A stretch of DNA of 52,229 nt, taken from IMG/VR virus record IMGVR_UViG_3300038406_000260, positions 1 to 52,229 of that record. One strand, written 5' to 3'. Origin of the DNA: a virus. Lineage: Duplodnaviria; Caudoviricetes. The notes below the pieces were generated by a model. That model did not search any database, had not been told where the DNA came from, and saw only the letters and a list, made by a program, of their open reading frames with translations. This document shows positions 14,284 through 45,755 of the stretch, one piece after another. Both the position numbers and the translations under genes were made by a program. How positions within the stretch are numbered: the first letter of the stretch is position 1; each line of letters opens with the position of its first letter.

Positions 14284-14678
14284 TACCCGACCTTCTGGAT
14301 CGCGCTGGCCGCGTTCCAGCTCGCGCTGATAGCCACCGCACCGCTGACCGCACCGTTGACGCTCATGTCCGGCAGGATCGTCCCGAACCAGTACTGCGCG
14401 TTGAGAGTGCTGGGGTACAGGTAGAACTTGCGCGCGATCCCGTCGGTGGCCGCGGTGTAGGTCTGCACCGTGGCGTCGTCGTAGAAACCGGCGAAGTCGC
14501 CGCTGGCGTCCGGCAGGCCCGCGACGTAGACCTTGTTATCGTCGCCGAATGTCGTAGTGTCGATCTTCTCGGTCGCGAAGGAGATCGACCAGCTGTTCAG
14601 GAACGCCACCGGCTCAGCGGTGCCGCCGGATGCCAATGCCAGGTACACGCGTCCCCGGCGGCCATGGATACGTGCCAC
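14283..14678 (-). CDS. Major tail tube protein
   Basis: SWSIS....IDTTTFGD..KVYVAGLPDASG; GTG overlaps upstream stop. Confidence 0.8.
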   Translation of the reverse strand: MARIHGRRGRVYLALASGGTAEPVAFLNSWSISFATEKIDTTTFGDDNKVYVAGLPDASGDFAGFYDDATVQTYTAATDGIARKFYLYPSTLNAQYWFGTILPDMSVNGAVSGAVAISASWNAASAIQKVG

Positions 14679-15706
14679 TATCTCACTCCCTCTAACAGGC
14701 GCAGCATGCGCGCTGCGTTGTCCGCGAACGTGCGGTCGGCGACCGCCTGACGGGCCTCGGCTGCCGCCGCCGCCCGGAGATCCTCGTGTGCCAGCCACCA
14801 CCGGGCCAGATCGCCCGCCTCGGCCGGCGAGCCGAACGCGGGCAGCATCGGCAGCAGCTCATCACCCTCGCCGCGCGGCTCCCGCAGGAACGGCAGGCCG
14901 ACCGCCGCCATCTCCACCTCACGCGGACCGCAAGCCCAGCCGGCCGCCGAGTCCCCGTCCTCGGTCTCCTGGCGGTACAGGTTCAGCCCGATCTTGGCCG
15001 AGCGGTAGATCCGCACCGCCTCTGCGTTGTCCAGGCACTCGGCGATGTCGTGGCCCACATGCTTACGCAGCGGCGAGTCCTTGGCCAGCCGCTGCCAGTT
15101 GCCGGCCAGCAGCAGATCCAGCCCGGTACGGTCCATCGCCTCGAAGAAGGCGATCCGCGATTCGAAGCCGGTGCCGACGAACGCCAGGTCCGCGGCCAGG
15201 TGCGGCTCGGCCGGGCCGGGGCAGTGCACCGTCGGGCGGTAGGCGTGCGGCAGGTAGTGGGCCGGGGCCAGCTCCCGGTACCGGTCGATGCTCACCGGGT
15301 CGTTGAGCAGGTTCAGGTCGGCGTGCGCGGCCACGGCAAGCTGCCGGGTGTCCTCGTATGGCGTCTCGGTGTGCAGCACCACCACCCGGGTCCGGTAGCG
15401 GCGGGCCAAGTCCAGCAACTGGACCGGCACCAGAAACGCCGAGACCACCAGCAACACGTCGGGCCGGGTCTTGTACAGGCAGGAGTACAGGCCGTTGACC
15501 GCCAACTCGACTGCGGTCTCCTGCGGGATGGCCTTGCGGAACTGACCCTCGGCGATGTTGAAGTAGGCGCCGTCGTAGAAGACCAGCCGATCATGCAGAT
15601 TGAACGGGATCACCCGGTGGCCGAGCTGTTCGAGCGCCTCCACCCACCCGGCGTACACGTCGGCCACGGAGAAAGACGGGCCAGGATGGCAGACCACGAA
15701 CCGCAT
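14678..15706 (-). CDS. GT-B glycosyltransferase (CgeB / Glyco_trans_1_2-like)
   Basis: ETPYED, DLAFVGT, IYRSAKIGLN, PREVEMAA, RTF.DNA motifs; start MRFVVCHPG. Confidence 0.85.
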   Translation of the reverse strand: MRFVVCHPGPSFSVADVYAGWVEALEQLGHRVIPFNLHDRLVFYDGAYFNIAEGQFRKAIPQETAVELAVNGLYSCLYKTRPDVLLVVSAFLVPVQLLDLARRYRTRVVVLHTETPYEDTRQLAVAAHADLNLLNDPVSIDRYRELAPAHYLPHAYRPTVHCPGPAEPHLAADLAFVGTGFESRIAFFEAMDRTGLDLLLAGNWQRLAKDSPLRKHVGHDIAECLDNAEAVRIYRSAKIGLNLYRQETEDGDSAAGWACGPREVEMAAVGLPFLREPRGEGDELLPMLPAFGSPAEAGDLARWWLAHEDLRAAAAAEARQAVADRTFADNAARMLRLLEGVR

Positions 15707-16200
15707 CAGCCGACCGCCAAGCTGTCGAACAGCGCCACGGTGGCCCGGTCCGAGGCGTAAAGCTGGCCTTTCCGCACGCCGTACCCGTAGCCCAGCGGCA
15801 AGGCCCAGGCCGCGAACGCCTCGGCGAACGCCTCGAACCGGTCGGTCGCGGCGTAGTCGCCAACCGGCTCGGCCCGGTGCGCGAACCCGAGCGACGCGTC
15901 CAGCACGTGACCCAGCTCGTGCACCAACACCGGCAACCCCAGTGAGGCCGGGCGCCCCGGCAAGACGACGGTGGTGCGGCGGTTCGTCCGGGCAGTCCCG
16001 GTCTGGTGGAACTCGTAGGCGACATGCGCGGTGCTGCGGTACGAGCGGCCGAACGACGCGCCCTCGTAGCGATGTAGTCCCGCGAACACCGGGTCCACCC
16101 CGCACAGGAAGTGCGGCCGGATCAGCCGGTGCATGCCCGCGGGGATCAGCGAATACGCCGCCTCGATCGGAGCCCGGTACCGGTGGGCAACGCGCTCCAT
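15706..16200 (-). CDS. Zincin metallopeptidase-like protein
   Basis: VLVHELGHVLD plus YAATDRFEAFAEAF; TGATG coupling on both sides. Confidence 0.7.
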   Translation of the reverse strand: MERVAHRYRAPIEAAYSLIPAGMHRLIRPHFLCGVDPVFAGLHRYEGASFGRSYRSTAHVAYEFHQTGTARTNRRTTVVLPGRPASLGLPVLVHELGHVLDASLGFAHRAEPVGDYAATDRFEAFAEAFAAWALPLGYGYGVRKGQLYASDRATVALFDSLAVG

Positions 16201-16595
16201 CAGCCGACCTCGACAACCACGTCCGCCGCCAAGTACTTGATCCCCGCCCACTCGACGATCCGGTCGCGGCCCACTGAGACGGCCGTCGCGAAATCCACCA
16301 CCCCGCCGAGCGTCGGGTCACCGTCGATGGCCAGCCGGATCGACGAGGCGCCCTCGCCAGCCAGGTAGGCGTCGAGCTTGACCTGGCTGCTCGGGTCCTC
16401 CGGGTGCTCCACCATCACCGTCACCGCGAACGTCAGGTCGTCGGAGTCGGTGGAGGTGTCGAAGGCGGTGGAGCGGCGGGACACCACCGCCGCCGGCGCG
16501 TTGACGTTAGCCGGCATGCCGGCGTGCGCGCGTAGCCCGACGATCGTGTCCAGCCGGACCTTGATCGCCTCGCGGATCTGCTGAACGGTGGCCAT
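16200..16595 (-). CDS. Tail terminator / head-tail joining protein
   Basis: QIREAIKVRL...AIDGDPTLGG; position. Confidence 0.65.
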   Translation of the reverse strand: MATVQQIREAIKVRLDTIVGLRAHAGMPANVNAPAAVVSRRSTAFDTSTDSDDLTFAVTVMVEHPEDPSSQVKLDAYLAGEGASSIRLAIDGDPTLGGVVDFATAVSVGRDRIVEWAGIKYLAADVVVEVG

Positions 16596-21608: not shown

Positions 21609-22247
21609 TCACCCCACAGCACCCCGACCACCGGGTCCATCCGTGCCCCACTTCCGCCGGAACCGGGCCAGCCCCGCATCCCAGCCGTTCAGCTGCGCCA
21701 CGTCCGTCGGGCCGGCGGTGTTGTGCAGCACTAGGCCCGCGCCGCCGGTCAGGCACCAGTTGCGGCGGCCGGCGGCCAGCTGCTGCTCACACATGTCGTG
21801 GTCGTATGTGTGGAACCCGGCATAAGCCTCGTCCCAGACCACCCGCTGCGCGGTGGCCAGCAGCAGCCCGTCCAGATGGGCGCACTCGCCACCAGCGCCG
21901 AAGTCCAGCACACCCATCCGGGCGTCGACCACCGACCCGCGGCAGACACCCTCCCACCACGGCGTCACCCGGTTGATACTGCCGACCACGCCAACCATGC
22001 CGACCTTCGGCGTGCAGTGCACCAGCAGCTCAGACCGCAGCCCCGTCGGGTCCAGGACTTGCACGTCCTGGTGCACGTAGCAGCGGATCGGCTGAGTCGC
22101 CCGGGCCTGACCCCGGTTGTAGGCCACCGCGATCGACGGCGGATCCTCCACCACCACCAGCTCATCACAGTCGCCGAGCACCAGCGTCGCGGCCAGGTTC
22201 GCGGCCAGCACCTCCGGCCGGTGCGAGGCGACGATCCAGGAGATCAC
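21609..22247 (-). CDS. GT-A glycosyltransferase (Glyco_tranf_2_5-like)
   Basis: SIAVAYNRG, YVHQDV, LDGLLLA, FHTYDHDMC. Confidence 0.85.
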   Translation of the reverse strand: MISWIVASHRPEVLAANLAATLVLGDCDELVVVEDPPSIAVAYNRGQARATQPIRCYVHQDVQVLDPTGLRSELLVHCTPKVGMVGVVGSINRVTPWWEGVCRGSVVDARMGVLDFGAGGECAHLDGLLLATAQRVVWDEAYAGFHTYDHDMCEQQLAAGRRNWCLTGGAGLVLHNTAGPTDVAQLNGWDAGLARFRRKWGTDGPGGRGAVG

Positions 22248-22831
22248 GGGAAGTGGTAATCCACGGTGACCTCCGGCACGTACGCCCACCGCGCGCCGGC
22301 CCGCAGCCAGCGGTCGACCAGATCCCAGTCGATCGTCGGCAGGCTCTGCTCCCACGTCCCCAGCTCAAGCACGCCACGGCGATGAAGGAGCAGGGACGTG
22401 TCGATCTGCCCGAGGACGGGGGGCTGCGCGCCCACCTGGAAGGTGAGCCGGCCGCCGCGGTACACGTCCATGCGGGAGTAAGCGAAGTCAAGCTCCGGAT
22501 CGCCGGCTAGCACTCCGACCAGCCTGGACAGATGGTCGGGGTGGTAGGCGTTGTCATCGTCCAGGTAGGCGACCAGGTCACCACGCGCGATGCCGATGCC
22601 GTGCAGCCGCGCCCAGTGGCCCCAGCGGGCATGCTCATCGTGCCGGTCCAGCTCGGCGAAGGTGACGCCCAGATCGGCAACCAGCTCGGCGAGCTCCGGG
22701 TCTGGGCCGTCACTGACCACCACGTGCTCCACCCGCGGGTACGACTGACCCGACACCGACGGGATACAGCGGCCCAGCAGCAGATCATGCCGCTGCCAGG
22801 TGGGGGTGACCACCGACACCAGCGGCGTCAC
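22244..22831 (-). CDS. GT2 glycosyltransferase
   Basis: VSVVTPT, VVVSDG, ARGDLVAYLDDDN, DWDL. Confidence 0.9.
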   Translation of the reverse strand: MTPLVSVVTPTWQRHDLLLGRCIPSVSGQSYPRVEHVVVSDGPDPELAELVADLGVTFAELDRHDEHARWGHWARLHGIGIARGDLVAYLDDDNAYHPDHLSRLVGVLAGDPELDFAYSRMDVYRGGRLTFQVGAQPPVLGQIDTSLLLHRRGVLELGTWEQSLPTIDWDLVDRWLRAGARWAYVPEVTVDYHFP

Positions 22832-23661
22832 ACGCCCACCAGCCGGCGGTAGTACTCGACCGTCTCGGCCAGCCCGAGCGGCCACAGCTGCCGGCGGCAG
22901 GATGCGACCGGAGCCACCGCCACCACCCACGCGTCGGCCGGCTCCCCGGGCCGCATCGGCAGATGCACGATGCTGGACGTCGACCCGCACACCTCGACCA
23001 CCGTCTTGGCGGCCTCCAGCACGGTGGTCGCGACGCCGGTACCCGCCTCAAGGACCAGCCCGTAGGGACCGCCCAACGCATCCACCAGCGCCACGGCGAC
23101 ATCGGCGACGTGCACCAGGTCGATCCGCTGACTACCCGAGCCGTTGACCTCCACGTCCATACCGGTCAGCGCCCGGCAGACGAATGACGGAACGATCTTA
23201 CGGACCAGGCTCGTGCCGTGAGGCGGCGCCGGCTTCTGTCCCGGACCATAGACGTGGTAGGCGCGCACCACGGCGATCGGTTGACCGCCCCAGCAGGCAC
23301 GGGACAGGGCCAGATCCTCGGCGCACGCCTTGGTGATCGCGTACGGGTTGAGCTGGCCGCGGTGACCGGTACCGATCTGCACGGTCGGTATCCCGTGCGC
23401 AGCCGCGGCGGAGTAGACGGCATCGGCGCCGAGGATGTTGACCTCGATCGCCCGCGCCTCTGCCCCGATCAGCTCGGCGGTGCCGAGCGTACCGGCGAGA
23501 TTGATGACCCCTTCCACGCCGGCCATGGCCCGATCGAGCGCGACCCGGTCGCGGATGTCATCCGGCCGGTCGTAGCCCACCGGCTCGATACCCCGACCGG
23601 CGAGCTCGGCAACGACCGCCGCGCCGATGAACCCGGCCGAGCCGGTGACAAGGACCCTCAC
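22828..23661 (-). CDS. NAD-dependent NDP-sugar epimerase/dehydratase
   Basis: VTGSAGFIG, YAITK, VYGPGQ, DLVHVADVA. Confidence 0.92.
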   Translation of the reverse strand: MRVLVTGSAGFIGAAVVAELAGRGIEPVGYDRPDDIRDRVALDRAMAGVEGVINLAGTLGTAELIGAEARAIEVNILGADAVYSAAAAHGIPTVQIGTGHRGQLNPYAITKACAEDLALSRACWGGQPIAVVRAYHVYGPGQKPAPPHGTSLVRKIVPSFVCRALTGMDVEVNGSGSQRIDLVHVADVAVALVDALGGPYGLVLEAGTGVATTVLEAAKTVVEVCGSTSSIVHLPMRPGEPADAWVVAVAPVASCRRQLWPLGLAETVEYYRRLVGV

Positions 23662-24218
23662 GCCAGCCCCCGGTAGATCGCCAGCGTGTCCACCAGCTCC
23701 GGCGGCGGACCGAGCAACCGATCCAGCGCGGCCGCCACCCCCGGGCAGGTGTCCTCGCCGTAGTCGTGGCAGGCCAGCACCCCACCGGGAGCCAGCAGCT
23801 TGACCGCCCAGGTGACATCGTGCTCCACGGTCGCCTCGGCGTGATCGCCATCGACGAAGATCAGCCCGAACCGGCGGCCGGCCGCGGCCAGGTCCGGCAG
23901 CGCCACGAAGCTGAACCGCTGGTCGATGGTCACCTGGTCAGCGACCCGGCAGGCAGCCAGGTTCGCCCGCATCGTCTCCGCCGAGCTGAGCCACGAGTGT
24001 GGGTCCACCGCGGTCACGACCGCGCCGGCCGAGGCCATCACCGCCGCCGACCAGCCGTAGGCGCTGCCGATCTCCAGAACGCCGCAGCGGGGATCAGTCG
24101 GGTGGGCGCGGGTCGCCGCCCACGTCAGCTCACGCAGCGTCTCAGTCTCCACGGCGGTGACCGAGGTCGAGATGGCCGGCCAGTCGGCAAACACCACCGG
24201 CCGCCACTCCAGCTTCAC
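23658..24218 (-). CDS. Class I SAM methyltransferase (Methyltransf_24-like)
   Basis: VLEIGSAYGWS, FVDGDH, LAPGGVLACHDY. Confidence 0.9.
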   Translation of the reverse strand: MKLEWRPVVFADWPAISTSVTAVETETLRELTWAATRAHPTDPRCGVLEIGSAYGWSAAVMASAGAVVTAVDPHSWLSSAETMRANLAACRVADQVTIDQRFSFVALPDLAAAGRRFGLIFVDGDHAEATVEHDVTWAVKLLAPGGVLACHDYGEDTCPGVAAALDRLLGPPPELVDTLAIYRGLA

Positions 24219-25606
24219 TTCGCACCACCCAAGTGCTCGGCGGCCCGCCGCTCGAACAGCGCACGGTCCGCCTCCACGTGCGACTGGCCCAGCTCGTAGA
24301 CCTCATCCATCTCGGCCGTGCCGTACAGCGGGTGGAAGTGCTCAACCCGGGAACCCAGCGCCATCGCCCACACCCCGCGCTGCTTGGCGACGGTCACGAT
24401 CTCATCGTCTACCCACCAGTGCCGGTACCCCTCGTGGCACACTACGTCGGGGCCGTCCCAACTGGCGCCCCGCTCGGCCGCGTACGACCGGCGGACCAGC
24501 ATGTGAGTCGCATGGTGGCCGGCGGTCACCCGCGGGTTGGCCAGATCGTTGGTGCCGATCACGTGATGGCTGGCGCCGGCCACCGCCTGGGCGTGGTCGA
24601 GCCAGCCCGGCTGGAACCGCACATCATCGCCGGTGACGAACAACCACGGCTCGGCGGTCTGCCGGTAGCCGGCGTTGATCCGCTCGGCGAAGGTCGCGCA
24701 GCCCGGGTCCGTGATCACGTCGGCGCCGGCGGCCTTCCACGCGGCGATGGCCTCCGTCTCATCCGGCCGCGCCACCGCGTACGCCCGGGCCAGCCCGGTC
24801 GAGGCGCGCAACGAGTCCACGAACCGCTCGGCGTTGGCGTGCCGCAGAGCCGGCACCACCACCGCAGTCTCGGCGGTCGCCGGTGGCGCGGTAGCCCACT
24901 GCCAGTAGTCCGCCTCCTGCAACCACAACTGCTTCCAGTGGCTGGTCTTCACCCCAGTGTGGACGTACACCGGAAGGCCGAGCGACCCGGCCCGAATACA
25001 GAACGAGATGTCCTCGCCGAACAGCCCGCCCAACATTGGATTGGGCAGCCGGTCGTACCACACCGGTCCGCGCGTGTCGCGGATCCGCTGGAAGACCGAC
25101 CGGTGCACCAGCAGACACGCCGAGCCGGTCGCCACACATTGCACGAGCGCGTTGACCGGATACGTGGTCCGGGCGAACGTGCTGCCCACGTCACCCTGGC
25201 CGACCCAGTCGAAGATGGTGGGCCGCGGCTCGCAGCGGCGGCCGCCGAGCCCGTCATCGCCGACCTCCTTCTGGGCGAAGCACAGACCGCCGACGATGGG
25301 ACGCGTCACCGGATCCGCCACCTCGAGCAGGCAGTCGACCGTGTCCGGGGCGAACCCCATGTCGGTGTCCACCCACCAGAGCCACTCGGCGTCGCGCTCG
25401 GTCAAGAACCGCTCGACCGTCTGGTTCCGGGCGGCGGGCAGGCCGCCGGACGCGGTGTAGTTCATGGCCAGGAACCCACCGTTAAGCACCCGCCCGTGAC
25501 GCGCCCAGTCCCAGCCGATCAGCTCGACCAGGCTCATGTGCCAGGAGTGGGGGAGGCCGCGATCGTCATCGTAGATGTAGGCGACCGTTACGGCGCTGTC
25601 GGTCAT
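24215..25606 (-). CDS. Two-domain GT-A glycosyltransferase
   Basis: Domain 1 ARN..WWVDTD..GEDISFC; domain 2 INAGY..FVTGDD..HWWVDDE..VEHFHP. Confidence 0.88.
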   Translation of the reverse strand: MTDSAVTVAYIYDDDRGLPHSWHMSLVELIGWDWARHGRVLNGGFLAMNYTASGGLPAARNQTVERFLTERDAEWLWWVDTDMGFAPDTVDCLLEVADPVTRPIVGGLCFAQKEVGDDGLGGRRCEPRPTIFDWVGQGDVGSTFARTTYPVNALVQCVATGSACLLVHRSVFQRIRDTRGPVWYDRLPNPMLGGLFGEDISFCIRAGSLGLPVYVHTGVKTSHWKQLWLQEADYWQWATAPPATAETAVVVPALRHANAERFVDSLRASTGLARAYAVARPDETEAIAAWKAAGADVITDPGCATFAERINAGYRQTAEPWLFVTGDDVRFQPGWLDHAQAVAGASHHVIGTNDLANPRVTAGHHATHMLVRRSYAAERGASWDGPDVVCHEGYRHWWVDDEIVTVAKQRGVWAMALGSRVEHFHPLYGTAEMDEVYELGQSHVEADRALFERRAAEHLGGAK

Positions 25607-25956
25607 GCCGCGCCCTGCGCCTTGGCCAGCTCCTCGCGGAGCCGGACCAGGCTCCATCGGCCATCTACTTTGACACCCAGGCCGAGCAGTTGTGCGCGCA
25701 GCGCCTCGACCTCCGCGGCTGCCTGGTCGGCCCGTGGCCGGATCACCCGCAGCTCACCCGGCGCGGCGGTCGCCTGCTCCACCGGCGGGTCAACCTGCAG
25801 GTGGCGCGGCAGGGTGGTCCGGATGATCTTCGGCAGGTCGGAGAACCAGTCCGGATGCAGCTGCACGATCGGGTCGTCGGCGCGCCACGCCTCGCCCTCC
25901 ACGATCTGGACGGACGGGGTGACCCAGCTGGTGAACTTGGCGTAGACCACGTGCAT
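25603..25956 (-). CDS. Capsid-adjacent small protein
   Basis: VEQATAAPGE and LGVKVDGRWS...L motifs; directly after capsid. Confidence 0.6.
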   Translation of the reverse strand: MHVVYAKFTSWVTPSVQIVEGEAWRADDPIVQLHPDWFSDLPKIIRTTLPRHLQVDPPVEQATAAPGELRVIRPRADQAAAEVEALRAQLLGLGVKVDGRWSLVRLREELAKAQGAA

Positions 25957-25987: not shown

Positions 25988-26024
25988 CCCCCGGTCGCCC
26001 GACCGCCAGGCGGACGACCGGGGG
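25988..26024. terminator. Hairpin after the major capsid stop
   Basis: CCCCCGGTCG...CGACCGGGGG. Confidence 0.5.
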
Positions 26025-26034
26025 GTGAGATGGG

Positions 26035-26866
26035 TTACTGGTTCTGAAGCAGGCGGAAGGCGGCGTGGTTGACCGAATTCCCGCCGATCCGCGCCCAGGC
26101 GAACCAGCCACGCTGGCCGCTGGGCCGGTTGTTGTCGGTGTGGAACAGGTGCGGCACCAGCTCCACGCTCATTCCGCCCCGGCGGGCGATCAGGTAGTTG
26201 GACCAGTCACCGACGACCAGGCGGTGTTCCTTACCCGTGGTGCCGGTGAAGTCCGGGAAGTACGGGCTCTCGTAGACCCTCTTCCCGAACAGGATGTCCG
26301 CCCACTCGGCCGGCAGCTCCTTGGTGGTGGCGTGGAAGACGTTAGCCGTGCCGAACTGCCGGATCCGGTTGTTGATGTCCACCGACATCATCCAGGACGC
26401 CCGGCGCCGGTACTTCTGAGGCAGCGCCTTCCACACCTTGTACACATCCTCCTGCCCGAAGCCGGCATCGGTCGTTGACGCGACCTCGCTGGCCGCGGTG
26501 GCGTCGAGGATTGTGAGGATGCCGGTCGGCTCGTTGTTGCCGCTGCCGCGGCTGAACTTGTCAACCAGCAGCTCGTCGTAGCCTTCGCCGAGCAGGCGGC
26601 CCATCTCTGTTGCGAACATCGGGTAGTCCATCCCGATCTCCAGGCTGTACGGGATGAACCCGCGGGCGGTGTGCAGCGGCACCGTCGGTTGGGCCAGCGT
26701 CGGACTGTTGTCCGTCACCTCGGAGCCCTCGGTCTGGAACTGCCAGGTCACCCCCGCCGCCGAGACGCCCTTCCACTCGTCGGTGCCGATCGTCTGCTGC
26801 CGACAGATCGCCAGGAACGGGTTCCCGGACTCCTGGTCGGTCAGGATGATGCTTGGATCGATGAAG
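26035..26866 (-). CDS. Major capsid protein, exon 2
   Basis: FIDPSIILT...GSGNNEPTGI...VVGDWSNY...RIGG; HK97 fold. Confidence 0.9.
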
Positions 26867-27841
26867 CGCTTTGTTACTCCTCGGCCCATGGCCGAAGGGG
26901 CTGGTCATTTCTGCCAGCCTCTCTATGTCTCCATAGAGGCCAGACTATATCTTTATCTCACTCAACCCTTGCCACTGCTCAACCAGGTCAGCCAGCGCCC
27001 GCAGGGTAGACGGGTTCTCGCCCGCCAGCCCCAACGTGGTGTTGCACTTGTTGCAAAGCAACGCCCGGACATCGCCGGAGCTATGGCAGTGATCGATGCA
27101 CCAACCCTTGCCGCCCGGGTTGTCCGTGCCACAGCCGGGGCAGCGGCCATCTTGTTGGGCCAAGAGTTGGTCGTAACGCTCCTGTGTCAATCCGTACTTC
27201 CGGAGCCGCCGCCGCTGTTCATGTGCCTGTCTGTGGATACGCGGGTCCACGCGACATCCGACACATACCGCCAAGCCAGGCTTACGAGCCACATCGGGTA
27301 GCGGCACCTGGCACTTGTAGCATCGGCGAACGGCTGCCCGAGCGCGAGCTCGAACATCCTCCTTGGTTGCCCGGCAACCACTGCACCACCGCGGCTTCGG
27401 CCCCATCCTCCGGACCTGGATGCGGGTCCCACAAGACTCACACTCAGTATCAGGCCGAGCTGGCCGGGACTTGTAGTGGCGGCGGGCCTTCTCCCGGTTG
27501 AGCTTCCTGCGCCACTGAACTTGGCAGTCCAGGGAACAGGTCTTGTCGACCTTGCGTCGAGGGGAGAACCGGGTTCTACAGATTGCGCACTCTCGGTCGG
27601 GCTGCACGCCCTCAAGAGTACAGGAGCATTAAAGGGTTGAGAGAGATATCCCGTACATAGTCGTTGAACCTTCCCGTCGGGTTGCCCCAGGCGGGCTCGG
27701 CTGCTGATTGTCCCTACCGTCCACTTCTCAAACCGTCGCGCTCGGGCTTTCGCCCCACGCTGTGGTGTGAACGTCTAGCAGGATGTTCCAGCAATTCTCG
27801 GGATTGTCACTAGCCCGTCACCGGGCTAGGCGGCCACCTTG
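26867..27841 (-). mobile_element. Group I intron (975 nt) in the major capsid gene
   Basis: P GAATTGCTGGAA, Q AATCAGCAG, R GTTCAACGACTA, S AAGATATAGTC; P1 U-G pair; terminal G; splicing restores the frame. Confidence 0.92.
26945..27607 (-). CDS. Intron-encoded endonuclease VII-family homing endonuclease with Zn fingers
   Basis: KYGLT..Y..LL..Q.G.CPGC...IDHCH..G.VRALLCNKCN..LG; lies in the P8 loop. Confidence 0.88.
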   Translation of the reverse strand: MQPDRECAICRTRFSPRRKVDKTCSLDCQVQWRRKLNREKARRHYKSRPARPDTECESCGTRIQVRRMGPKPRWCSGCRATKEDVRARARAAVRRCYKCQVPLPDVARKPGLAVCVGCRVDPRIHRQAHEQRRRLRKYGLTQERYDQLLAQQDGRCPGCGTDNPGGKGWCIDHCHSSGDVRALLCNKCNTTLGLAGENPSTLRALADLVEQWQGLSEIKI

Positions 27842-28485
27842 ACCGGAACGCCGAACCCGCCGGCGGTGTCCGACAGGGACATCGCCCGGTACTCGTCGTA
27901 GGTGTCCATCGCGCGCCGCTCGTCGTCGGTCAGCCGCGGGTGGACCTGGGTCACCATCTTCATCCAGGCGTTGCGGTACTCGTCGTTCTCGGTGACGATG
28001 ATCCGCCGGCTGATGTCCGGGTCCCGCCGGATCTGACGCTCGACGTGGCCCATTGCCGTCGAGGACAGCGTCGCCTTCACATCCCGGCCATCCAGGATCC
28101 GCAGCGCCCGGTCCCGGGCCTCCGCGTTGGTGAGCCGCCGGATCTCGGTGGTCTCCAGCCCGTCCCGGATGTTGGCCAGCGCCCGCTCGACCGCCTTCGG
28201 CTTACGACGGAAGATCTCCTGGATCTTCCGGTGCTCGTCGAGACGGTTGATGGCGATGTCCCGCAGCTTCAGGCCGTAGTCGAACGCGGCCTGCTCGTCG
28301 TCGGTCTTGTCCCGCAGCTCGCCCTCTTCGCTCTGGTGCAGCTCGCGCAGGTGCGCGTCCAACACCTCGACGTAGACCTGGAGCTCCTCGGGCGTCTTCC
28401 CGCGCAGCTCCTCGGGCACCTCACCACCCAGAGCGGCGGCGTCCTTCCCGCGGAGATCGTCGAGGATCACGATTGGTTGAGTCAT
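27842..28485 (-). CDS. Major capsid protein, exon 1 (delta domain to GGFGVPV)
   Basis: Coiled-coil delta domain, then RAMSLSDTAGGFGVP; spliced CDS 1476 nt = 491 aa. Confidence 0.9.
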
Positions 28486-29426
28486 TGCTTGATCCTTCGC
28501 ATTCGCAGCGCCCCGTCGTCGAGACGCTGCTTCGTGGACATGACGGTCGACACCTCGCCCCTCCTGAACTCCGTGTCGCAGTCACCGCCACCCGCGCTCC
28601 GCGCGCCGGGTCGCCCGGTGAGGTCTGGGGTTGGCGGGGCGGCGCGCTGCGCCAGCACCTCCGCCAACTCGGGGAACGTCTCGGCGATCTCCCGCGCCAG
28701 CGCTTGTCGCGCGTCCGCGTCGAAGACCGCCAGATGACGCCGGATGCAGCCCGGGTCAAGGCCGAACTGAGCGATCACGCCCCGCAGCGCAAGCTGGCTC
28801 GGGTCGAACCGGCCACGGCCGCGTACCCCGACGCTGGTCTGCGTGTAGGCCGGGAACACCACCGGCCCCAGCTCGTACAGGTCCACCTCGGTGATCTCGC
28901 GGCGGATCGGACCCCGGTCGCCCGGGTCGTCCAGCAGTGCCGACAGATCGTCGTCAGTGACAGCCTCGCCGGCGGAGTCCAGCCAGCGCTCGCCCGTCAC
29001 GCGGAACTTGAACGACATGCCGCGGATCGCCTTACCCGCGACCGCCTGCCGGATGGGCTCGACGACCTCGTTGTCGAACATCCGCGCCCGGACGAACAGG
29101 CCCTCGTCGTCCTCGCGCAGATCCTCGATGGCCGCGATGGGGACCGAGCCGGTGCGCTTGTCGTTCCCGTGATCGAACTGCATCACCGGCCAGCTGGCGC
29201 GCAACGTGCGCTTGAACGCGCCACGCGCGATCGTCTCCTCGAACTCACCCTCGTAGCCGGAGATCTTCGTCGGCTGGTCGAACACTGCGGCGTAGCCTTG
29301 CAGCGTCCGGCCGTCGCCAACCACGTCCGGGTCGGGGTCTGTGGCTCGGAACTCGACCGAGCGGCTACAGATCCTGAGTGCGGCCCTCGCGTTTCCACGC
29401 ACCAGGTCAGTCTGCGGTGCCTGCAT
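28482..29426 (-). CDS. HK97-type prohead protease
   Basis: GYAAVFD, FDHG, GMSFKF, LYELGPVVFPAY. Confidence 0.93.
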   Translation of the reverse strand: MQAPQTDLVRGNARAALRICSRSVEFRATDPDPDVVGDGRTLQGYAAVFDQPTKISGYEGEFEETIARGAFKRTLRASWPVMQFDHGNDKRTGSVPIAAIEDLREDDEGLFVRARMFDNEVVEPIRQAVAGKAIRGMSFKFRVTGERWLDSAGEAVTDDDLSALLDDPGDRGPIRREITEVDLYELGPVVFPAYTQTSVGVRGRGRFDPSQLALRGVIAQFGLDPGCIRRHLAVFDADARQALAREIAETFPELAEVLAQRAAPPTPDLTGRPGARSAGGGDCDTEFRRGEVSTVMSTKQRLDDGALRMRRIKQ

Positions 29427-30813
29427 CGGGACCTCCTGTGGGTGCGGTCGGCGTCTTGGGCGCAGCGGGCGTCCCCGGCGGTTGAAGTTGCACCGAGACG
29501 TTCCCGGTGTGCTGAAGCAGGGTGATGTCCTGGGCGTCGACCGCGTCGACCGCCGACTTGGCGGTGAAACCCTCCCGCACGTAGGCGGTGATGGTCGAGG
29601 ACTTGATCTGCTCGATGTCGGCCGCGTCCTTGCCGTCCTCGCGCAGCAGCGGGATGTCGGTGGTGTCGAACCACAGCTCGGCGTCGCCCGGCACGTCTAC
29701 GATCGGCGACAGCGAGGCGGCTACATCCTGAAGCGTCGGGTAGAGCCACATGTCGGCGAAGATCCGCCGGGCCATCCCGAAGTTGCCGGCGTTCAGGCTC
29801 GATCCGGCCAGGCCCTCGGAGATCCCCAGCAGCGCCGCCGGCACATCCCCGATCAACGCGATCCGGGTCTCCCCGGCGCCCTGGGTGACCTTGAAGTCCA
29901 ACTGCTTCAGGTCGGAGCCCACCACTGTCGCGTCGGCGCCGGCGGTCAGGTAGAGGGTGCGGTAGGCGTTGCGGATCCCGGCGTGCCGGGCCTCCATCGC
30001 GTCGACGATCTCGTTGAACTGGTCTTCAGTGACCGCCGGTATCCCCTTGACCACCATGTTCGGCGTTGCGCCGTTGGTGAAAAACGCCAATTTGTGCTGC
30101 GTGGCGGCGCGGTCGCCCTGGATCTCCTTCAGCGCCGCGGTCACCCACGACATGCCCAGCCCGGGAGACTCCGGGTCCGGGATCGGCGACCAGTGCGCCA
30201 CCTCGTCCGGCAGCAGCGTGTGCGCCTGGTTGCCGTTATCCGGCCGGATCCCGCCGTTCTGGTAGACGTAGCCGATGATCTCGCCGTCGATCGCGTGCTT
30301 CGGGTCCTCCGGCTCCAGGTCCGAGCCGTACAAGATGGCGGTGAAGTCCGGCCGCAGCACCCGAAGCCGCTTCGGCTGCCGGGCCACATACGAGTTACCG
30401 GTCAGACCGGCGTGCCACTCCATCCGCGACAGCAGCTCGCCCGTGGTCGCCCGCGGCCACGGCCGCTCCAGCTGCTTCAGCGCCGAGGTGCCGAAGGTCC
30501 GCCGCGGGGTACGCGGATGCCACGGCACGTTCCGGAACCGGAACCGGGCCTGGGAGAGCACCCGGGCACGCTTCATCTGCGCGCCGAACGCCGGCGGGCA
30601 CTGCTTCAGCGCCGCCGAGTAGGCCGGCAGCGTATCGGCGATGTCCTTGAGCCGCGAGCCCTGGTAGGTCTGCTGCAACCCGAACGGGTACGTTGCGCCG
30701 TTGTAGCCGAACTGGGACGGCAACAGATACTCGTTCAGCCACTGGTCGGCCGCGTACCGCTTCTCCGCCCGCCCCGGCGCCCGCTCCGCGGCGATCCGCT
30801 CAAGCAGGCCCAC
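29407..30813 (-). CDS. Portal protein (HK97 type)
   Basis: GNSY, GMSWV, FFTNGATP, VPAALLG; position after terminase. Confidence 0.9.
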   Translation of the reverse strand: MGLLERIAAERAPGRAEKRYAADQWLNEYLLPSQFGYNGATYPFGLQQTYQGSRLKDIADTLPAYSAALKQCPPAFGAQMKRARVLSQARFRFRNVPWHPRTPRRTFGTSALKQLERPWPRATTGELLSRMEWHAGLTGNSYVARQPKRLRVLRPDFTAILYGSDLEPEDPKHAIDGEIIGYVYQNGGIRPDNGNQAHTLLPDEVAHWSPIPDPESPGLGMSWVTAALKEIQGDRAATQHKLAFFTNGATPNMVVKGIPAVTEDQFNEIVDAMEARHAGIRNAYRTLYLTAGADATVVGSDLKQLDFKVTQGAGETRIALIGDVPAALLGISEGLAGSSLNAGNFGMARRIFADMWLYPTLQDVAASLSPIVDVPGDAELWFDTTDIPLLREDGKDAADIEQIKSSTITAYVREGFTAKSAVDAVDAQDITLLQHTGNVSVQLQPPGTPAAPKTPTAPTGGPDAGTAD

Positions 30814-31018
30814 GCACGGCACCTGCCGGCTTGCGGGCATCCTGCCAGCCCAGCTTCACGGACGTGCCGACCACCGCCAGCGCCAACCCGGCCCGGCTCG
30901 CCAGCCAACCCACCGCGTAGAACACGCCGAGCAGCAGCGCCAGCAGCGCCCGGCCGACGTGGACCTGCCGCGCCTGAGCCATGATGCGATCGGTCGGAAC
31001 CCGCTCAAGGACCGTCAT
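30800..31018 (-). CDS. Small membrane protein between terminase and portal
   Basis: Hydrophobic; common at this position. Confidence 0.6.
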   Translation of the reverse strand: MTVLERVPTDRIMAQARQVHVGRALLALLLGVFYAVGWLASRAGLALAVVGTSVKLGWQDARKPAGAVRGPA

Positions 31019-31027
31019 CTGATCTCC

Positions 31028-32671
31028 CTATCGCCAGGCCCCGAAGAACTGCTGCTCCAGCTCGGGCACCTCATGCAGCACCCACACGCCCATGCACATC
31101 GCCACCGCAAAGTCGATGTGACCCCGGCTACGGCCCTTGCGCAGCGTGAACCCGCCCCGTTCCTGCGGTACCGCCACCGCCGCCTTCACGTGCGTGGTCT
31201 GGTCCGGGTCACCGTCGTGCACGATCCGCTGCTCCAGAATCAGCTTGAAGGCCAACCCGCACGCGGGAACCATCCGCGTCGGCGACTGGTCGAACTCGAT
31301 CGCCCGGATGTCGTGCGCCTCCAGCATCCGCGCCGGCACCTCGAAATACCGCGGGTCGTAGACCACCCCGCGGAAGCCCAGCCCCTTGGCCTGCTCCCGG
31401 ATGTAGACCCAGACGTCGTCATGCGGAATCCGGCCGCCGTGGTCCTCGGCCCGCCAGATCCGCGAACTGACGGCGATCCGGCCGTCCGGCAGCTCCTCGC
31501 ACCGGTCCACCGCCACCGAATCGTGCTTCAGCGCCATGTCCACGGCCAGCAGCCACGGGTTGGCGTCATCCGAGACCCACTCGCCGCGGCAGTGGCCCCA
31601 CGCCTGCGGGTGGTCCTTCAACCAGGAGTCCTCGGCAACATCCACCCACCGGTTGGCGAAGTAGCGGATCCACTCATGCGGCGGGTAGTCCGGCTTTCCC
31701 CAGGCACTGACCCGGTCCGCCACCGACCACAGCACGTCCGCTGCGGCCGACGCGGCCCGCACCGCCAGCTCCCGGTGGTCGGCCCGGCGGTAGTCCAGCC
31801 CATCCGGCGCCTCACGCCAGTCGAACAGGAACCGCGGCGACACGGACGGGTCACGCAGCACCCGCCGCCCCAGCTTCACCAGGTCACCCAGCAACGACGC
31901 GTCGATGTCGAACCCCGATGTCGACAGGCTGATCACCCGGCCTGAGCCGCGTGGCGTGCGCCGCTTCTTGGTCGACTTGCCGATGACCGTCTTGACCCGC
32001 GCCTTACGCGCGCCGGTCTGACCCTCCCGCACCGGCTCGCCCCACTCGTGCAGCTCATCGCACACGAACAGGGTCGGCAACCCACCCTCGTTCGTGCCGG
32101 CCACCGCCGCCACCCGGAAGATCCGACCCGGCCGCTTGTCGGCGAACCGGATCTCGGTGTCATAGACCTCGAAGAAGCCGCACAGCGGCGAGGCCTTCTC
32201 CACCTCGTCCCGGCCGCCGCACATCGTGGCCACCGCCGAGAACAGCAGGTCGGCCTGCTCGAAGCTGGCCGCCGCGATCGGGATGTTCGGCGACGGCACC
32301 GCGATCTGCGGCGGCCCGGCGAACTCCAGCACCACGATGGCGGCGATGAACTGGGTCTTACCGTCACCGGTGGCCGCGCCGCGTAGCGCCTCGTCGTGGT
32401 GCCACTGCTGACATTCCGGGCAGTACTCGTACCAGCGGTACAGAAACCGCTTCTGGTCCGGGCGCAGCCGGATCAGCTGGCCGTGCCAGTCGCCCTCGCC
32501 ACAGATGCAGCACTCTTCGATCCACCGGACCGCGACGGCGCCCTCGGTCGGCCACAGCTGGCCGGGCTCCGGCCGCCAACCGCACGCCTGGCAGCCGGGG
32601 TCAGGCTTGGATGATCCGGGGGTCCTCGTGGGCCTCGGCCTGGGCGGTGCCGTCGTCGGTGACATTCGCAC
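31028..32671 (-). CDS. terL: Terminase large subunit
   Basis: ATGDGKT Walker A variant, VCDELHE Walker B, AVDMALKHD, YDP, HID. Confidence 0.93.
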   Translation of the reverse strand: MRMSPTTAPPRPRPTRTPGSSKPDPGCQACGWRPEPGQLWPTEGAVAVRWIEECCICGEGDWHGQLIRLRPDQKRFLYRWYEYCPECQQWHHDEALRGAATGDGKTQFIAAIVVLEFAGPPQIAVPSPNIPIAAASFEQADLLFSAVATMCGGRDEVEKASPLCGFFEVYDTEIRFADKRPGRIFRVAAVAGTNEGGLPTLFVCDELHEWGEPVREGQTGARKARVKTVIGKSTKKRRTPRGSGRVISLSTSGFDIDASLLGDLVKLGRRVLRDPSVSPRFLFDWREAPDGLDYRRADHRELAVRAASAAADVLWSVADRVSAWGKPDYPPHEWIRYFANRWVDVAEDSWLKDHPQAWGHCRGEWVSDDANPWLLAVDMALKHDSVAVDRCEELPDGRIAVSSRIWRAEDHGGRIPHDDVWVYIREQAKGLGFRGVVYDPRYFEVPARMLEAHDIRAIEFDQSPTRMVPACGLAFKLILEQRIVHDGDPDQTTHVKAAVAVPQERGGFTLRKGRSRGHIDFAVAMCMGVWVLHEVPELEQQFFGAWR

Positions 32672-33194: not shown

Positions 33195-33599
33195 CTACCT
33201 AGTGATGCCCGTCGATGCGTGTCGGCCCCACCCCCCGGGGGGTGCCCACCCTGACCTGTCCTTCTTGCGTGCGTTGCATGGTCGACATAGGACAGCGAGT
33301 GGGCCTGCCTCCGCGCCTCCGGCTGCGACAGCGACGATGTGATCGGCGGTGAGGTCCGTGGCGGGGTGGGGTGACCTTCCCCAGCCGGGGCACCAGTTAC
33401 CGACCCGCCCCCGGTGTTGAGCGACCGCCTCAGCGCGGCGTCGAGTCTCGGCGCTGGTGATCACCGGCTTGGCGACAGCGCAGCGCGGGCAGCGGCCGGA
33501 CTGCCGCAGCCGCCTACCCCGGCGCTTGGCCACCCCCTTGTCGACGAGGCCCCCGCAGTCGAGACACGGCACCATGGGCATTTGTCGCCTATCCGACAC
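33195..33599 (-). CDS. Packaging-associated HNH endonuclease
   Basis: TADHIVAVAAGG....LAVLCRPCNARK; next to terS. Confidence 0.85.
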   Translation of the reverse strand: MSDRRQMPMVPCLDCGGLVDKGVAKRRGRRLRQSGRCPRCAVAKPVITSAETRRRAEAVAQHRGRVGNWCPGWGRSPHPATDLTADHIVAVAAGGAEAGPLAVLCRPCNARKKDRSGWAPPGGWGRHASTGITR

Positions 33600-43182: not shown

Positions 43183-43643
43183 GGTGATACCTCCGCGGTG
43201 ATGACGGGATAGTGGTGGGGGTCGCCGTAGCCCTCGATCCGGAGCAGGCTGACGGCGTCGCCCAGGTGGAGCCGCAGCGGCAGCGGGCCGGCGATCCGGC
43301 TGTCCAGCCAGTGGCGGCCGTCGAGCCAGGCCCACCAGCGGCCGGCGTTTGCCGGCCCGACCCCGCGTCGCTGGGTGACCAGCACCCCGAGGTCCGCGCC
43401 GGCGTTGAGCCGCTGCTGCTCCAGGTCGTGCAGCCAGCGGCAGATGTCCAGGTCGCTGGCTGTCTTGGCAGCGGCGCCGCCTTTGATCGACCAGCAGATG
43501 CCGGGGGTGCCGGTGATGTCCCCGGCATCGTCCCGGCCGTGTAGTCTGCGCCGCTCGGCCTGCGGGAACCCGGCGCCCTGGAGGTAGCGGACCACGTCGG
43601 TCTCGGTGTGGGTGCCGATGTCACCCGGGCTACGTGGCGCCAT
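43179..43643 (-). CDS. Holliday junction resolvase-like nuclease
   Basis: GT..ET.VV.YL...GFP.AERR...G.DD.GDI. Confidence 0.7.
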   Translation of the reverse strand: MAPRSPGDIGTHTETDVVRYLQGAGFPQAERRRLHGRDDAGDITGTPGICWSIKGGAAAKTASDLDICRWLHDLEQQRLNAGADLGVLVTQRRGVGPANAGRWWAWLDGRHWLDSRIAGPLPLRLHLGDAVSLLRIEGYGDPHHYPVITAEVSP

Positions 43644-44556
43644 CGGTCACCCCGCTGCCGGGTTCGGCCGTGGCCGGCCAGTCCTCGGCGGCCGGCTCGT
43701 CGACTACCTCGCCGTCGATGTCGGGCAACGGCAGCTCGACGCCAGCCGGCATCCCCGGCGAGGTGGCCACGCGGTTCGCCTCAGCGATAGCCCGGGCAAT
43801 CTCCATCCGGAACTCGGCCGACGTCGGCACCCACTTCTGTAGCTGCCGCACGCCGGACTTGAGCCACATGCTGGCCTCGTGGTGGACCCACGGCGAGTAC
43901 TCAGAGTTGGCGCCCTCGGCGCTGGCCTTGATGCGGGCGATGTCTTCGGCGCCGAGCTGGACGACGCGCGAAACGGCGCCGTCCTTCATCCGCGCGTAGG
44001 CGTAGACACCTAACAGCCCTCCACGGCTAGCCGCTCCAGTGAACGGCGGCCAGTTGTGCCACGGGATTTCCTGCGGACCCTGCCAGCGCGGCGGGATCTG
44101 GCGGTCGAGCTGGCCGGCCACGAACTCGTACTGGTCGTGCTCGCGGACGACTTCCGCCACGATGGAGGAGACGGCGCCGGCGCGGTACATCAGCTCGATG
44201 TATCCCTGGTACCCGACGATCCCCAGGATCTCCAGCTTTCCCTTCACCTTGCGGGGGGTGAGGTAGTAGCCTTCGGTGCCGGGCTCCAGCCCGAGCCTGG
44301 CGGCATCCAGCAGGGCGGCGAGGAACTTGCCGGGGTTGTTGGCGGCGGCGACTTCGAGCACGAACATGCCGCGCTGCGGTGACTTCGGGTCGTCGATCCG
44401 CTTGCCGCGCTTGAGGGCGCCTTGGGCGAGCCGTACCCAGGTCTCGGCCTTGATGTGCGATGGGAGCACCTGGGCGAAGCTGGTGGAGTACTGCTTGATG
44501 AGCCCGGCGGGGCTGTTGTCGCGCTGGGCGACTGCGTTGGTGATGGTCTCAGCCAT
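43630..44556 (-). CDS. recT: RecT-family recombinase
   Basis: AARLGLEP, YLTP, GYQGYIELMYRAG, SPW....MWLK. Confidence 0.9.
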   Translation of the reverse strand: MAETITNAVAQRDNSPAGLIKQYSTSFAQVLPSHIKAETWVRLAQGALKRGKRIDDPKSPQRGMFVLEVAAANNPGKFLAALLDAARLGLEPGTEGYYLTPRKVKGKLEILGIVGYQGYIELMYRAGAVSSIVAEVVREHDQYEFVAGQLDRQIPPRWQGPQEIPWHNWPPFTGAASRGGLLGVYAYARMKDGAVSRVVQLGAEDIARIKASAEGANSEYSPWVHHEASMWLKSGVRQLQKWVPTSAEFRMEIARAIAEANRVATSPGMPAGVELPLPDIDGEVVDEPAAEDWPATAEPGSGVTDGAT

Positions 44557-45565
44557 TGGTGAGCACCTTTCCCGGGTTGAGCTTGTCGATGGTGGTGGGT
44601 CCGACCTCGTAGGGCTTGCGGTCGTAGACGGAGCGGGACACGACCAGCCGGCCGCCTAGTGTGAGCCGGCGGCCGGCGGCGAGCAGGCCGCGGGCGCGTG
44701 CCTCGTAGCGGTCGCACACTGCGGTGGTGCGTGCCTTGATCTGGCGGGCGCGGCGCCACCCGTCGGCGAATGACGGGTCGACCTCGATCGGGTCGTCGTG
44801 CTGGATGGACGGGTGCAGCCGTTTGAGGGTGGTGATGGTGGCGGGGTGGCCGTCGTCGATGTCGGGCGGGTCGAGCTGGTTGAGCCGGTCGAGGAACCGG
44901 CGCCCGTGTTCGACCATCAGCTTTATGTCGGCCGGGTCGATCGCGCCGTCGTAGGTGCGGAACCCGGACGGGCCGAGGACGCCTAGATACCACTGCTCGA
45001 CGCCGAGGACGTGGCACTGCCACAGCGCCTGAGCCCGGTAGTAGACGGGGATGTCGTCGGTTCCGTCGTCGCCCCAGCCGTCCCACGTGCCGCTCCACTT
45101 GCACTCCAGCACCGCCAGCGGCGGACCCAGCGACTGCGAGCAGGTCCAACAGTATGTGCCTAGCGTCGGCCAACCGGTTTGAGTGCGGCCGTCGCCGCAC
45201 TCAGCGCACGACGGATGCACCAGCCGGTCGGGGGTGGCGAGCATCCACGGTTGGTCGCCGTGGGCGTAGAGCCCGGCTGGGGCGAGGGTGAGGTTCTCGT
45301 GCGGGTCGCACCGGTCGGCCCACAGGTCGGCAACCGCCTGCTCCACGGCGGCGCCGATGCTCATCTCGTCCGACTGCTCCTGCCGCCAGTCGTTGACCTT
45401 GGACCAGTACAGGCTGAACGGTGACTCCCACTTCGAGATGCCGAGCACGGCGGCGATCTCGCTGGCGGAGATGCCTTCCCGGCGTAGCCGGTGCCACTCC
45501 GGCTCTGTGGGTACAGCCCGGTCCGGTGGCAGTAGCTCTACGGCCAGTCGACCCACTACGGCCAC
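44549..45565 (-). CDS. YqaJ/RecE-like exonuclease
   Basis: R..GISASEIAAVLG.SKWESP; ATPDR; LECK; YYRAQ. Confidence 0.9.
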   Translation of the reverse strand: MAVVGRLAVELLPPDRAVPTEPEWHRLRREGISASEIAAVLGISKWESPFSLYWSKVNDWRQEQSDEMSIGAAVEQAVADLWADRCDPHENLTLAPAGLYAHGDQPWMLATPDRLVHPSCAECGDGRTQTGWPTLGTYCWTCSQSLGPPLAVLECKWSGTWDGWGDDGTDDIPVYYRAQALWQCHVLGVEQWYLGVLGPSGFRTYDGAIDPADIKLMVEHGRRFLDRLNQLDPPDIDDGHPATITTLKRLHPSIQHDDPIEVDPSFADGWRRARQIKARTTAVCDRYEARARGLLAAGRRLTLGGRLVVSRSVYDRKPYEVGPTTIDKLNPGKVLTNG

Positions 45566-45755
45566 ACCGCCACGATGCGCGTCCCGTCGCCGGCGGCGTG
45601 CCGGCCGGAGTGACCGAGCGGACGCGTGCACACGTACGGCCACTCCGGACCGCCGTATACCGCAGGGCAGCCCGGGGACGGGTTCGGGGTCAGGTCCAGC
45701 GGCAGGTCGGAGCGCAAGGCGCCACGCCGACGCTCGGCTGCGAAGGTCCAGGCCC

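Follow-up and report, generated by a model that had tools for sequence, protein, structure and literature searches.

Among phage group I introns whose nuclease ORF is looped out, the classical ones are those of T4 (td, nrdB, and nrdD), of the SPO1 DNA polymerase gene, and of Twort. In mycobacteriophage LittleE, a group I intron interrupts the major capsid gene, and RT-PCR and N-terminal sequencing showed that it is spliced; the available text of the LittleE paper also cites a capsid-gene intron in the lactococcal phage Tuc2009 (PMC3706429). (LittleE is a Cluster J phage described by Pope et al. 2013; for our comparisons, we used its genome record, GenBank JF937101.) Nucleases with the Endo VII motif are encoded within introns as well: according to the available text of Fang et al. 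2018 (PMC6083498), these lie in DNA polymerase introns of T7-like phages and myoviruses of Gram-negative hosts. The same text defines the DHHRN signature for the nuclease F-CphI, as CX2-4C...D-H-x-H...R...CX2C-N, and gives the roles of these residues.

Here we describe a 975-nt insert in the capsid gene of a phage with a G+C content of 70%. The whole stretch of DNA that we analysed, which we call the window, has 52,229 nucleotides and is a complete IMG/VR virus record (52,229 bp) with direct terminal repeats. The phage is uncultivated and comes from soil or sediment. The head module is on the minus strand, and its capsid gene is in two pieces:

31028-32671, minus strand: large terminase gene of the head module
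29407-30840, minus strand: portal gene (Pfam PF04860)
28482-29426, minus strand: S78 prohead protease gene (Pfam PF04586)
27842-28485, minus strand: capsid exon 1, 644 nt, ending in ...GGFGVP plus GU, the first two bases of a valine codon
26867-27841, minus strand: putative group I intron of 975 nt; its first base is the C that follows the splice-site U, its last the terminal G
26945-27607, minus strand: predicted homing endonuclease gene, 220 amino acids, GTG start, with its TAG stop (26947-26945) inside the S element
26035-26866, minus strand: capsid exon 2, HK97-fold major capsid body, 829 nt of coding sequence plus the stop (832 nt)

The portal and S78 protease genes (28482-30840) are directly upstream of the capsid gene, which gives the order portal-protease-capsid, and the ATG of capsid exon 1 overlaps the stop codon of the protease gene. 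A scan for sigma-70 promoters across 26000-28600 found 0 sites.

We propose that the insert is, very probably, a group I intron that is mobile and encodes a DHHRN homing endonuclease, and that it is predicted to splice and to home as a selfish passenger of the capsid gene.

Exon 2 encodes the body of the major capsid protein. It matches Pfam PF05065 (Phage_capsid) with E = 3.8e-30, with the match to the model beginning at exon-2 residue 20, as well as PHROG 10 ("major head protein"), and it is 59-92% identical to the capsid genes of 86 loci. These loci were fetched with exon 2 as the query and comprise the best 80 of 151 confirmed viral matches and 6 genomic ones. Exon 1 matches the N-terminal part of the capsid genes in 85 related loci, and this match is always directly upstream of the match to exon 2. 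The divergent N-terminal region encoded by exon 1 is probably a scaffold-like delta domain; exon 1 also encodes the first residues of the conserved capsid body. Exon 1 ends in ...CCG GU (the U is 27842), and the first base of exon 2 is the C at 26866. Joining the exons (644 + 832 = 1476 nt) gives a predicted protein of 491 amino acids with the junction ...GGFGVPV/FIDPS.... The joined reading frame restores the conserved GVPVFIDPS, and the 491-aa protein is colinear with 81 intronless homologues. Without splicing, the frame of exon 1 (ORF 27826-28485) runs to ...GVPVKVAA and then stops. The insertion point is between the second and third base of a valine codon in the motif GVPV/FIDPS. When conservation of the capsid is scored in 11-residue windows, two windows tie for the highest value (0.98): the one with this motif and GYDELLVDKFS. 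Highly conserved coding motifs are typical homing sites.

Both exons were found in 85 of the loci. In 81 of the 85, the capsid gene is uninterrupted and the two exon matches are exactly one codon (GTN) apart; the other 4 loci have inserts of 295-968 nt at the identical dinucleotide. Because 81 of 85 relatives are contiguous exactly across the insertion point, the insert is precise and dispensable. The nearest relatives among the matches listed (L002-L004, in our labels for loci) are intronless. Their amino-acid identity is 94-97% for exon 1 and 88-92% for exon 2, and their nucleotide identity to the exons is 88-92% with no gaps. Another sediment run contains a DNA contig in which a single letter separates 26865 from 27842, which is the intronless allele. 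These intronless alleles set the intron boundaries to within one redundant C.

The insert matches the group I intron model of Rfam (RF00028) over its full length (model positions 1-253) with 42.5 bits and E = 3.7e-9 in a 1.3-kb search. The gathering score of the model is 50, and a scan of the whole window at the gathering threshold returned nothing, so the intron surfaces only in a search by E-value. The Rfam alignment has a single insertion of about 680 nt, placed in the P8 loop. Two ORF-less introns at the same site (L035 and L066) score 77.6 and 72.5 bits with RF00028, and an ORF-bearing one (L079) scores 40.0. Since the ORF-less siblings score higher, the low score of the window copy fits a penalty for the P8 ORF of about 680 nt and not a defect in the core. 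The elements of the predicted intron RNA are:

27831-27845, minus strand: P1 hairpin, CGGUC (27845-27841) with GGCCG (27835-27831), loop 27840-27836
27810-27829, minus strand: P2, 8 pairs, closed by a GUGA (GNRA) tetraloop
27649-27803, minus strand: 5' part of the catalytic core, placed by the Rfam alignment, the RNAalifold consensus, and pair counts
27803-27799 with 27653-27649, minus strand: P3
27797-27786, minus strand: P element, GAAUUGCUGGAA
27793-27788 with 27707-27702, minus strand: P4, in the P and Q elements
27783-27711, minus strand: P5 and the extended P5a-c arm, with a GAAA loop
27709-27701, minus strand: Q element, AAUCAGCAG
27701-27668, minus strand: P6/P6a
27669-27658, minus strand: R element, GUUCAACGACUA
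27669-27657, minus strand: R element and 5' strand of P7
26954-27648, minus strand: P8 stem (27648-27632 with 26970-26954), 17 pairs, one U-U mismatch; the loop contains the nuclease ORF
26867-26953, minus strand: 3' part of the core, with the S element and the 3' strand of P7 at 26953-26943 and the terminal G at 26867
26953-26943, minus strand: S element, AAGAUAUAGUC
26938-26921, minus strand: P9, with a GAGA tetraloop
26919-26899, minus strand: P9.1
26896-26880, minus strand: P9.2

In P1, all 5 of 5 pairs are standard; the U.G pair is 27842/27834, and the terminal G of the intron is 26867. The pairing CCGGU/GGCCG recurs in all introns at this site for which the 5' exon end is available. P10 is weak: by eye, 3-4 of the first 7 positions of exon 2 could pair with the guide sequence. 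GNRA loops cap P2 (GUGA), P5b (GAAA), and P9 (GAGA), and the 3' part of the core contains a GUAACA motif that is invariant in the family. The P8 of ORF-less relatives is a hairpin of 10-30 nt, and the five basal pairs of P8 belong to the family consensus and covary.

The pairing is preserved across the family. In an alignment of 29 sequences (1041 columns, including the window copy), a custom script found every one of the family consensus pairs in the window copy (83 of 83); they span P1 to P9.2 and include the six-pair P7 pseudoknot (27662-27657 with 26948-26943). P7 has a compensatory change from U-A to C-G in 7 of the 29 sequences. For P2, the window copy forms 8/8 pairs, and compensatory changes are seen at 8/8 across the family. 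Running RNAalifold on 20 ORF-less members recovered P2, P3, P4, P5 with P5a-c, P6/P6a, P8, P9, P9.1, and P9.2. With the P7 pseudoknot added to this consensus (20 ORF-less relatives, 328 columns), 98.1% of the cells pair, as compared to 77.4% in shuffled alignments (0 of 500 shuffles reached the real value) and 32-40% in slid controls. Compensatory changes occur at 54 of the 78 pairs, P7 included. Together, the model E-value, the precise boundaries, and the family pairing put the predicted intron far beyond chance.

The ORF within the insert is a predicted nuclease gene. It sits wholly in the P8 loop except for its last codons, which cross the 3' strand of P8 into S. Three zinc-ribbon-like modules (CxxC...CxxC), which are presumably the DNA-recognition part, are followed by a C-terminal Endo VII (DHHRN) domain. 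The ORF matches Pfam PF02945 (Endonuclease_7) with 72.0 bits (the cut-off is 23.6) and E = 3.9e-20, covering profile positions 2-81 of 82, and PHROG 2914 ("endonuclease VII") with E = 4e-28. Furthermore, C156/C159, D172-H173-C174-H175, R181, and C185/C188/N189 align to the zinc and catalytic residues of T4 Endo VII (C23/C26, D40-H43, R54, and C58/C61/N62 in PDB 1e7d). From its domain and its residues, we read the ORF as an intact Endo VII-motif (DHHRN) nuclease gene. Full-length orthologues, 50-69% identical, are at the same place in six sibling introns (L032, L079, L139, L188, L104, and L116). The closest homologues in GenBank phages are less than 45% identical and are annotated as free-standing genes.

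The initial annotation had already described the insert at 26867-27841 as a group I intron that splits the major capsid gene, and the Rfam match, the 81 of 85 contiguous relatives, and the family pairing all agree with it. It had suggested a search with group I models, which is the search that gave the full-length match (42.5 bits, E = 3.7e-9, gathering score 50). On re-reading the minus strand, we arrived at the same splice-site U (27842), the same P1 (CGGUC/GGCCG, with its U-G), the same terminal G (26867), and the same 17-bp P8 with one mismatch that holds the nuclease ORF, with the stop in S. Its placements of P, Q, R, and S were reproduced by this re-reading and by the Rfam alignment. Its EndoVII-type nuclease is borne out by the match to PF02945 (72 bits) and by the alignment of the DHHRN residues to T4 Endo VII, and reading the frames returns the junction GGFGVPV-FIDPS, the 491-aa capsid, and the unspliced end at KVAA that it had given.

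Four classes of alleles occur at the insertion site. An intron with an intact ORF is found in the window and in L032, L079, L139, and L188. In L066 and L169, the intron has a decayed 3' remnant of the ORF. In L035, L107, L111, L151, L181, and a contig of run X2, the intron is ORF-less with a short P8 hairpin (in the X2 contig, a 16-nt hairpin takes the place of 26954-27648). The fourth class, with no intron, is found at many loci. Four allele classes at one site are signs of a homing cycle. The capsids of the intron carriers are only 48-68% identical to exon 2 of the window, and the nearest capsid relatives are empty, so the distribution of the intron is sporadic. We also looked for co-conversion: on comparing nucleotide identity to L002-L004 across 60-nt bins, we saw neither a distinct dip nor a distinct peak at the junction, so recent homing into this lineage is not demonstrated.

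By established group I chemistry, the late capsid transcript would fold, and an external guanosine would attack after U 27842 of the U.G pair in P1. The freed exon 1 would then attack after the terminal G (26867), and ligation of the exons would yield an mRNA that encodes a capsid precursor of 491 aa, to be trimmed by the S78 protease encoded next to it. Among the sequencing runs listed with this sequence, none is an RNA run. By analogy with characterised homing endonucleases, the nuclease would attack co-infecting relatives whose capsid allele has no intron, cutting that allele close to the insertion site, and recombinational repair from the intron-bearing genome would copy the intron in. The phage's own RecT/YqaJ pair may aid this repair. 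Because the intron disrupts the target, the carrier would be immune to its own nuclease. What we propose is a further case of a familiar type of selfish element, with no new mechanism.

We also considered that splicing might be a regulatory gate that times or limits capsid synthesis, or that couples it to expression of the nuclease. The initial annotation had concluded that splicing gates capsid production. In a trivial sense this holds: by the logic of the sequence, full-length capsid strictly needs splicing. Also, the nuclease ORF overlaps P8, P7, and S, so translation of the ORF and folding of the core would be mutually exclusive on one RNA molecule. However, regulation is unsupported, as the closest relatives, with 97% and 91% amino-acid identity in the two exons, encode the same capsid with no intron, which is consistent with a selfish element that is neutral. 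The intron occurs sporadically (81 of 85 relatives are without the insert), the ORF is often lost, and the same lineage occurs in unrelated structural genes, all of which fits a parasite better than a capsid-specific regulator. We consider the regulatory explanation to be very unlikely. In our best reading, the element is a selfish passenger, tolerated only if it splices efficiently, and not a regulator.

Another explanation is that the intron is a splicing-dead relic and that the capsid is made from two polypeptides: an exon-1 product that ends in KVAA and acts as a free scaffold-like domain, and an exon-2 product that starts at an ATG in the intron (26889). The case would then resemble genes that a homing endonuclease has split and whose two products come together after translation. 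This ATG is in frame and opens a 284-aa ORF into exon 2. The split is close to where the N-terminal scaffold-like domain would be expected to give way to the capsid body; the Pfam model starts at exon-2 residue 20. There is also a precedent, as the split NrdA gene of Aeh1 works without splicing, according to the available text of PMC7344957. However, all 83 consensus pairs and the invariant nucleotides of the core are intact, which would be pointless in a dead intron. The ATG at 26889 is in the variable P9.2 loop, is missing in sibling introns, and has no visible ribosome-binding site. And the exon-2 product would be without the conserved N-terminal motif GGFGVPV, which exon 1 encodes. These features make a capsid of two polypeptides very unlikely, and we return to a spliced, selfish intron.

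Finally, we considered an assembly chimera and insertions of other types (group II intron, intein, or free-standing nuclease cassette), all of which seem exceedingly improbable. The virus record was assembled from a metagenome, and the run that covers it best may be its own source, but 11 further distinct contigs from other samples have the same intron at the same dinucleotide, and the contigs of run X1 (near-complete coverage, perhaps from the record's own source sample and not independent support) tile the whole region without differing letters. An intein is ruled out by in-frame stops in the insert. A group II intron is rejected, as the RNA fits the group I model and no other Rfam family matches it at a meaningful score.

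Related introns are common in metagenomic sequences. We collected the family with a 19-nt core motif, which is present in at least 113 further IMG/VR viral contigs and in 13 genomic contigs, and profile searches then sorted dozens of members. Some are at a second site in the capsid gene, PYSI/ELGMDYP (L103, L123, and L194), where the nuclease gene is antisense, and others are at nearby positions in more distant capsids (L104 and L116). Divergent members are found in phrog_1357 major-head genes, with at least 2 introns per gene, on viral contigs and on contigs of Streptomyces genomes (L138, L156, L163/L213, and L204); L204 and L213 are Streptomyces prophages. Others are in a gene of PHROG 13692, a single stretch of which has four or five intron cores (L106 and L126), in a portal gene (L144), and in a major-tail gene (L128).

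Among GenBank phages, by contrast, little resembles this lineage. When 50,697 GenBank phage records were searched for the intron core by blastn with the 5' half of the intron, only 11 weak partial matches came up, to other phage introns at 70-76% identity. When the whole capsid region was the query, only exon 2 matched, and tblastn with the exon-1 protein found no match in these phages. In the titles and abstracts of the part of the literature that we covered, we found no description of this intron lineage. What is new, then, is a putative intron lineage that has only weak partial matches in GenBank phages and yet is common in metagenomic phage contigs, where it occurs repeatedly in capsid, portal, and tail genes.

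It is conceivable, though we hold this only tentatively, that this is an undescribed and very successful group I lineage whose specialty is the late structural genes of phages and prophages that are uncultivated and high in GC (actinobacterial). The genes we count here are the HK97-type capsid (at least 2 sites), phrog_1357 (several introns per gene), portal, and major tail. As part of the same tentative reading, the nuclease may be a weapon between phages, aimed at the capsid gene of intronless co-infecting relatives. An intron endonuclease of phage PhiPA3 is reported, in the available text of PMC11620839, to act against a co-infecting relative.

These introns have a practical consequence for annotation. 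Gene callers would report the capsid gene as two unrelated ORFs plus an "HNH/Endo VII" gene, and many metagenomic phage genomes probably contain this error, given the core motif in at least 113 IMG/VR contigs. The locus also adds to the evidence that, in high-GC phages, mobile introns regularly target virion genes with high expression, and introns in such genes must splice very efficiently. The four-allele series at one site (intact, decaying, ORF-less, and empty) suits the study of the homing cycle.

How does this locus compare to the known systems? Because a spliced capsid intron (LittleE) and intron-encoded Endo VII-motif nucleases are already known, the novelty is modest. In particular, the suggestion in the initial annotation that a capsid gene is an unusual home for a phage intron was overstated, considering LittleE and Tuc2009 (as described in the available text of PMC3706429) and the recurrence of this lineage in capsid, portal, and major-tail genes.

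LittleE is similar to the window in many ways. Both have a group I intron with a homing endonuclease gene in an HK97-type major capsid gene, in a phage of a high-GC Gram-positive host; both have the gene order portal, protease, capsid, and glycosyltransferase genes after the capsid gene. In both, the intron is within the first residues of the mature capsid, near GG-aromatic-x-V/I-P (...NGTGG/YAVP in LittleE and ...AGGFGVPV/FIDP in the window). If these GG-aromatic motifs correspond, the LittleE intron is 5 codons upstream of the window site. However, the LittleE intron belongs to another lineage: it has no match to the 5' profile of our family and scores 27 bits with the 3' profile and 30.7 bits with the Rfam model. 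Its ORF is antisense and 3' of the core, and is described as LAGLIDADG-like in the available text of PMC3706429 and as an HNH endonuclease in GenBank. The capsid proteins of LittleE and the window have no tblastn similarity. And splicing in LittleE is experimentally proven, while for the window intron it is predicted.

The nuclease is most like F-CphI of cyanophage S-PM2 and its intron-encoded kin. This class (PMC6083498) shares with the window ORF the C-terminal Endo VII motif (CX2C, DHxH, R, and CX2C-N), the N-terminal DNA-binding region, and the association with group I introns. F-CphI itself is free-standing, beside the psbA intron (PMC6083498), while the window ORF is inside its intron.

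Like the classical introns of T4, SPO1, and Twort, the predicted intron in the window has a compact core and an ORF in a peripheral loop, is inserted at a conserved motif, and is sporadic among close relatives. But the classical introns are in genes for nucleotide metabolism or replication, and the host gene here is a late structural gene. The class of nuclease differs, and so does the phage, which is actinophage-like with its high G+C (70%). The RNA differs as well: the window intron is without P7.1/P7.2 helices and has an extended P5 arm.

The intron lineage that splits the major capsid gene also occurs in other structural genes and at other sites. In other viral contigs and in Streptomyces contigs, single structural genes carry 2–5 cores of this lineage within 1.3–3.1 kb; each of these genes falls in one of two families: phrog_1357, a major head protein, or PHROG 13692, of unknown function.

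L106, 1972-5115: multi-core gene stretch
L126, 11160-14086: multi-core gene stretch
L138, 4617-6423: multi-core gene stretch
L156, 558-1991: multi-core gene stretch
L213, 4-1291: multi-core gene stretch
L144, 2906-3178: intron; adjoining exons match portal protein (phrog_64)
L128, 4336-4611: intron; adjoining exons match major tail protein (phrog_10528)
L103, 1967-2920: intron at a second site in a homologous capsid gene

Given the copies in portal and major tail genes, the lineage is not confined to capsid genes. The second capsid site, which is also occupied in contigs L123 and L194, has ...PYSI on its 5' side and ELGMDYP on its 3' side. At this site, the intron carries an Endo VII-like ORF on the opposite strand.

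Upstream of the intron's nuclease ORF, we found a conserved TAnnnT-like motif (27608-27625, minus strand; columns 230-250 of A2, an alignment of the intron family). It reads TGTACTCT in the window and TATACTCT, TGTATTCT, TGTACTCT, or TACACT in related introns. In introns with a sense-strand ORF and a clear start, the motif lies 5–7 nt before the GTG. Leaderless mRNAs are common among actinobacteria, and the motif could be a -10 element for a leaderless nuclease mRNA. A scan of 26000-28600 for the sigma-70 consensus gave 0 sites.

The alternative that the capsid is made from unspliced RNA, as two polypeptides, rests on an ATG in the P9.2 loop (26887-26889, minus strand), which begins a 284-aa ORF in the same frame as exon 2. 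Because sibling introns do not conserve this ATG, it is probably a chance occurrence.

The phage also has the following genes:

43630-44556, minus strand: RecT-family annealase
44549-45643, minus strand: YqaJ-type exonuclease
1890-2726: tyrosine integrase
33195-33599, minus strand: small HNH_5-type endonuclease, upstream of the large terminase gene

The annealase and the exonuclease form a phage recombination pair (43630-45643, minus strand) that could provide the break repair required for intron homing. The integrase suggests a temperate lifestyle. The HNH_5 gene sits where packaging-associated HNH genes are usually placed, and it has no relation to the intron nuclease.

Directly 3' of the capsid gene is a cassette of sugar-modification genes (21609-25657, minus strand), and another glycosyltransferase-like gene lies elsewhere:

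24215-25657, minus strand: GT2-like glycosyltransferase
23658-24218, minus strand: methyltransferase
22828-23661, minus strand: NAD-dependent epimerase/dehydratase
21609-22355, minus strand: second glycosyltransferase
14678-16321: glycosyltransferase-like gene, additional to the cassette

The cassette may be a virion glycosylation module. In the mycobacteriophage LittleE, whose major capsid gene is interrupted by a spliced intron of a different lineage, glycosyltransferase and methyltransferase genes likewise immediately follow the capsid gene.
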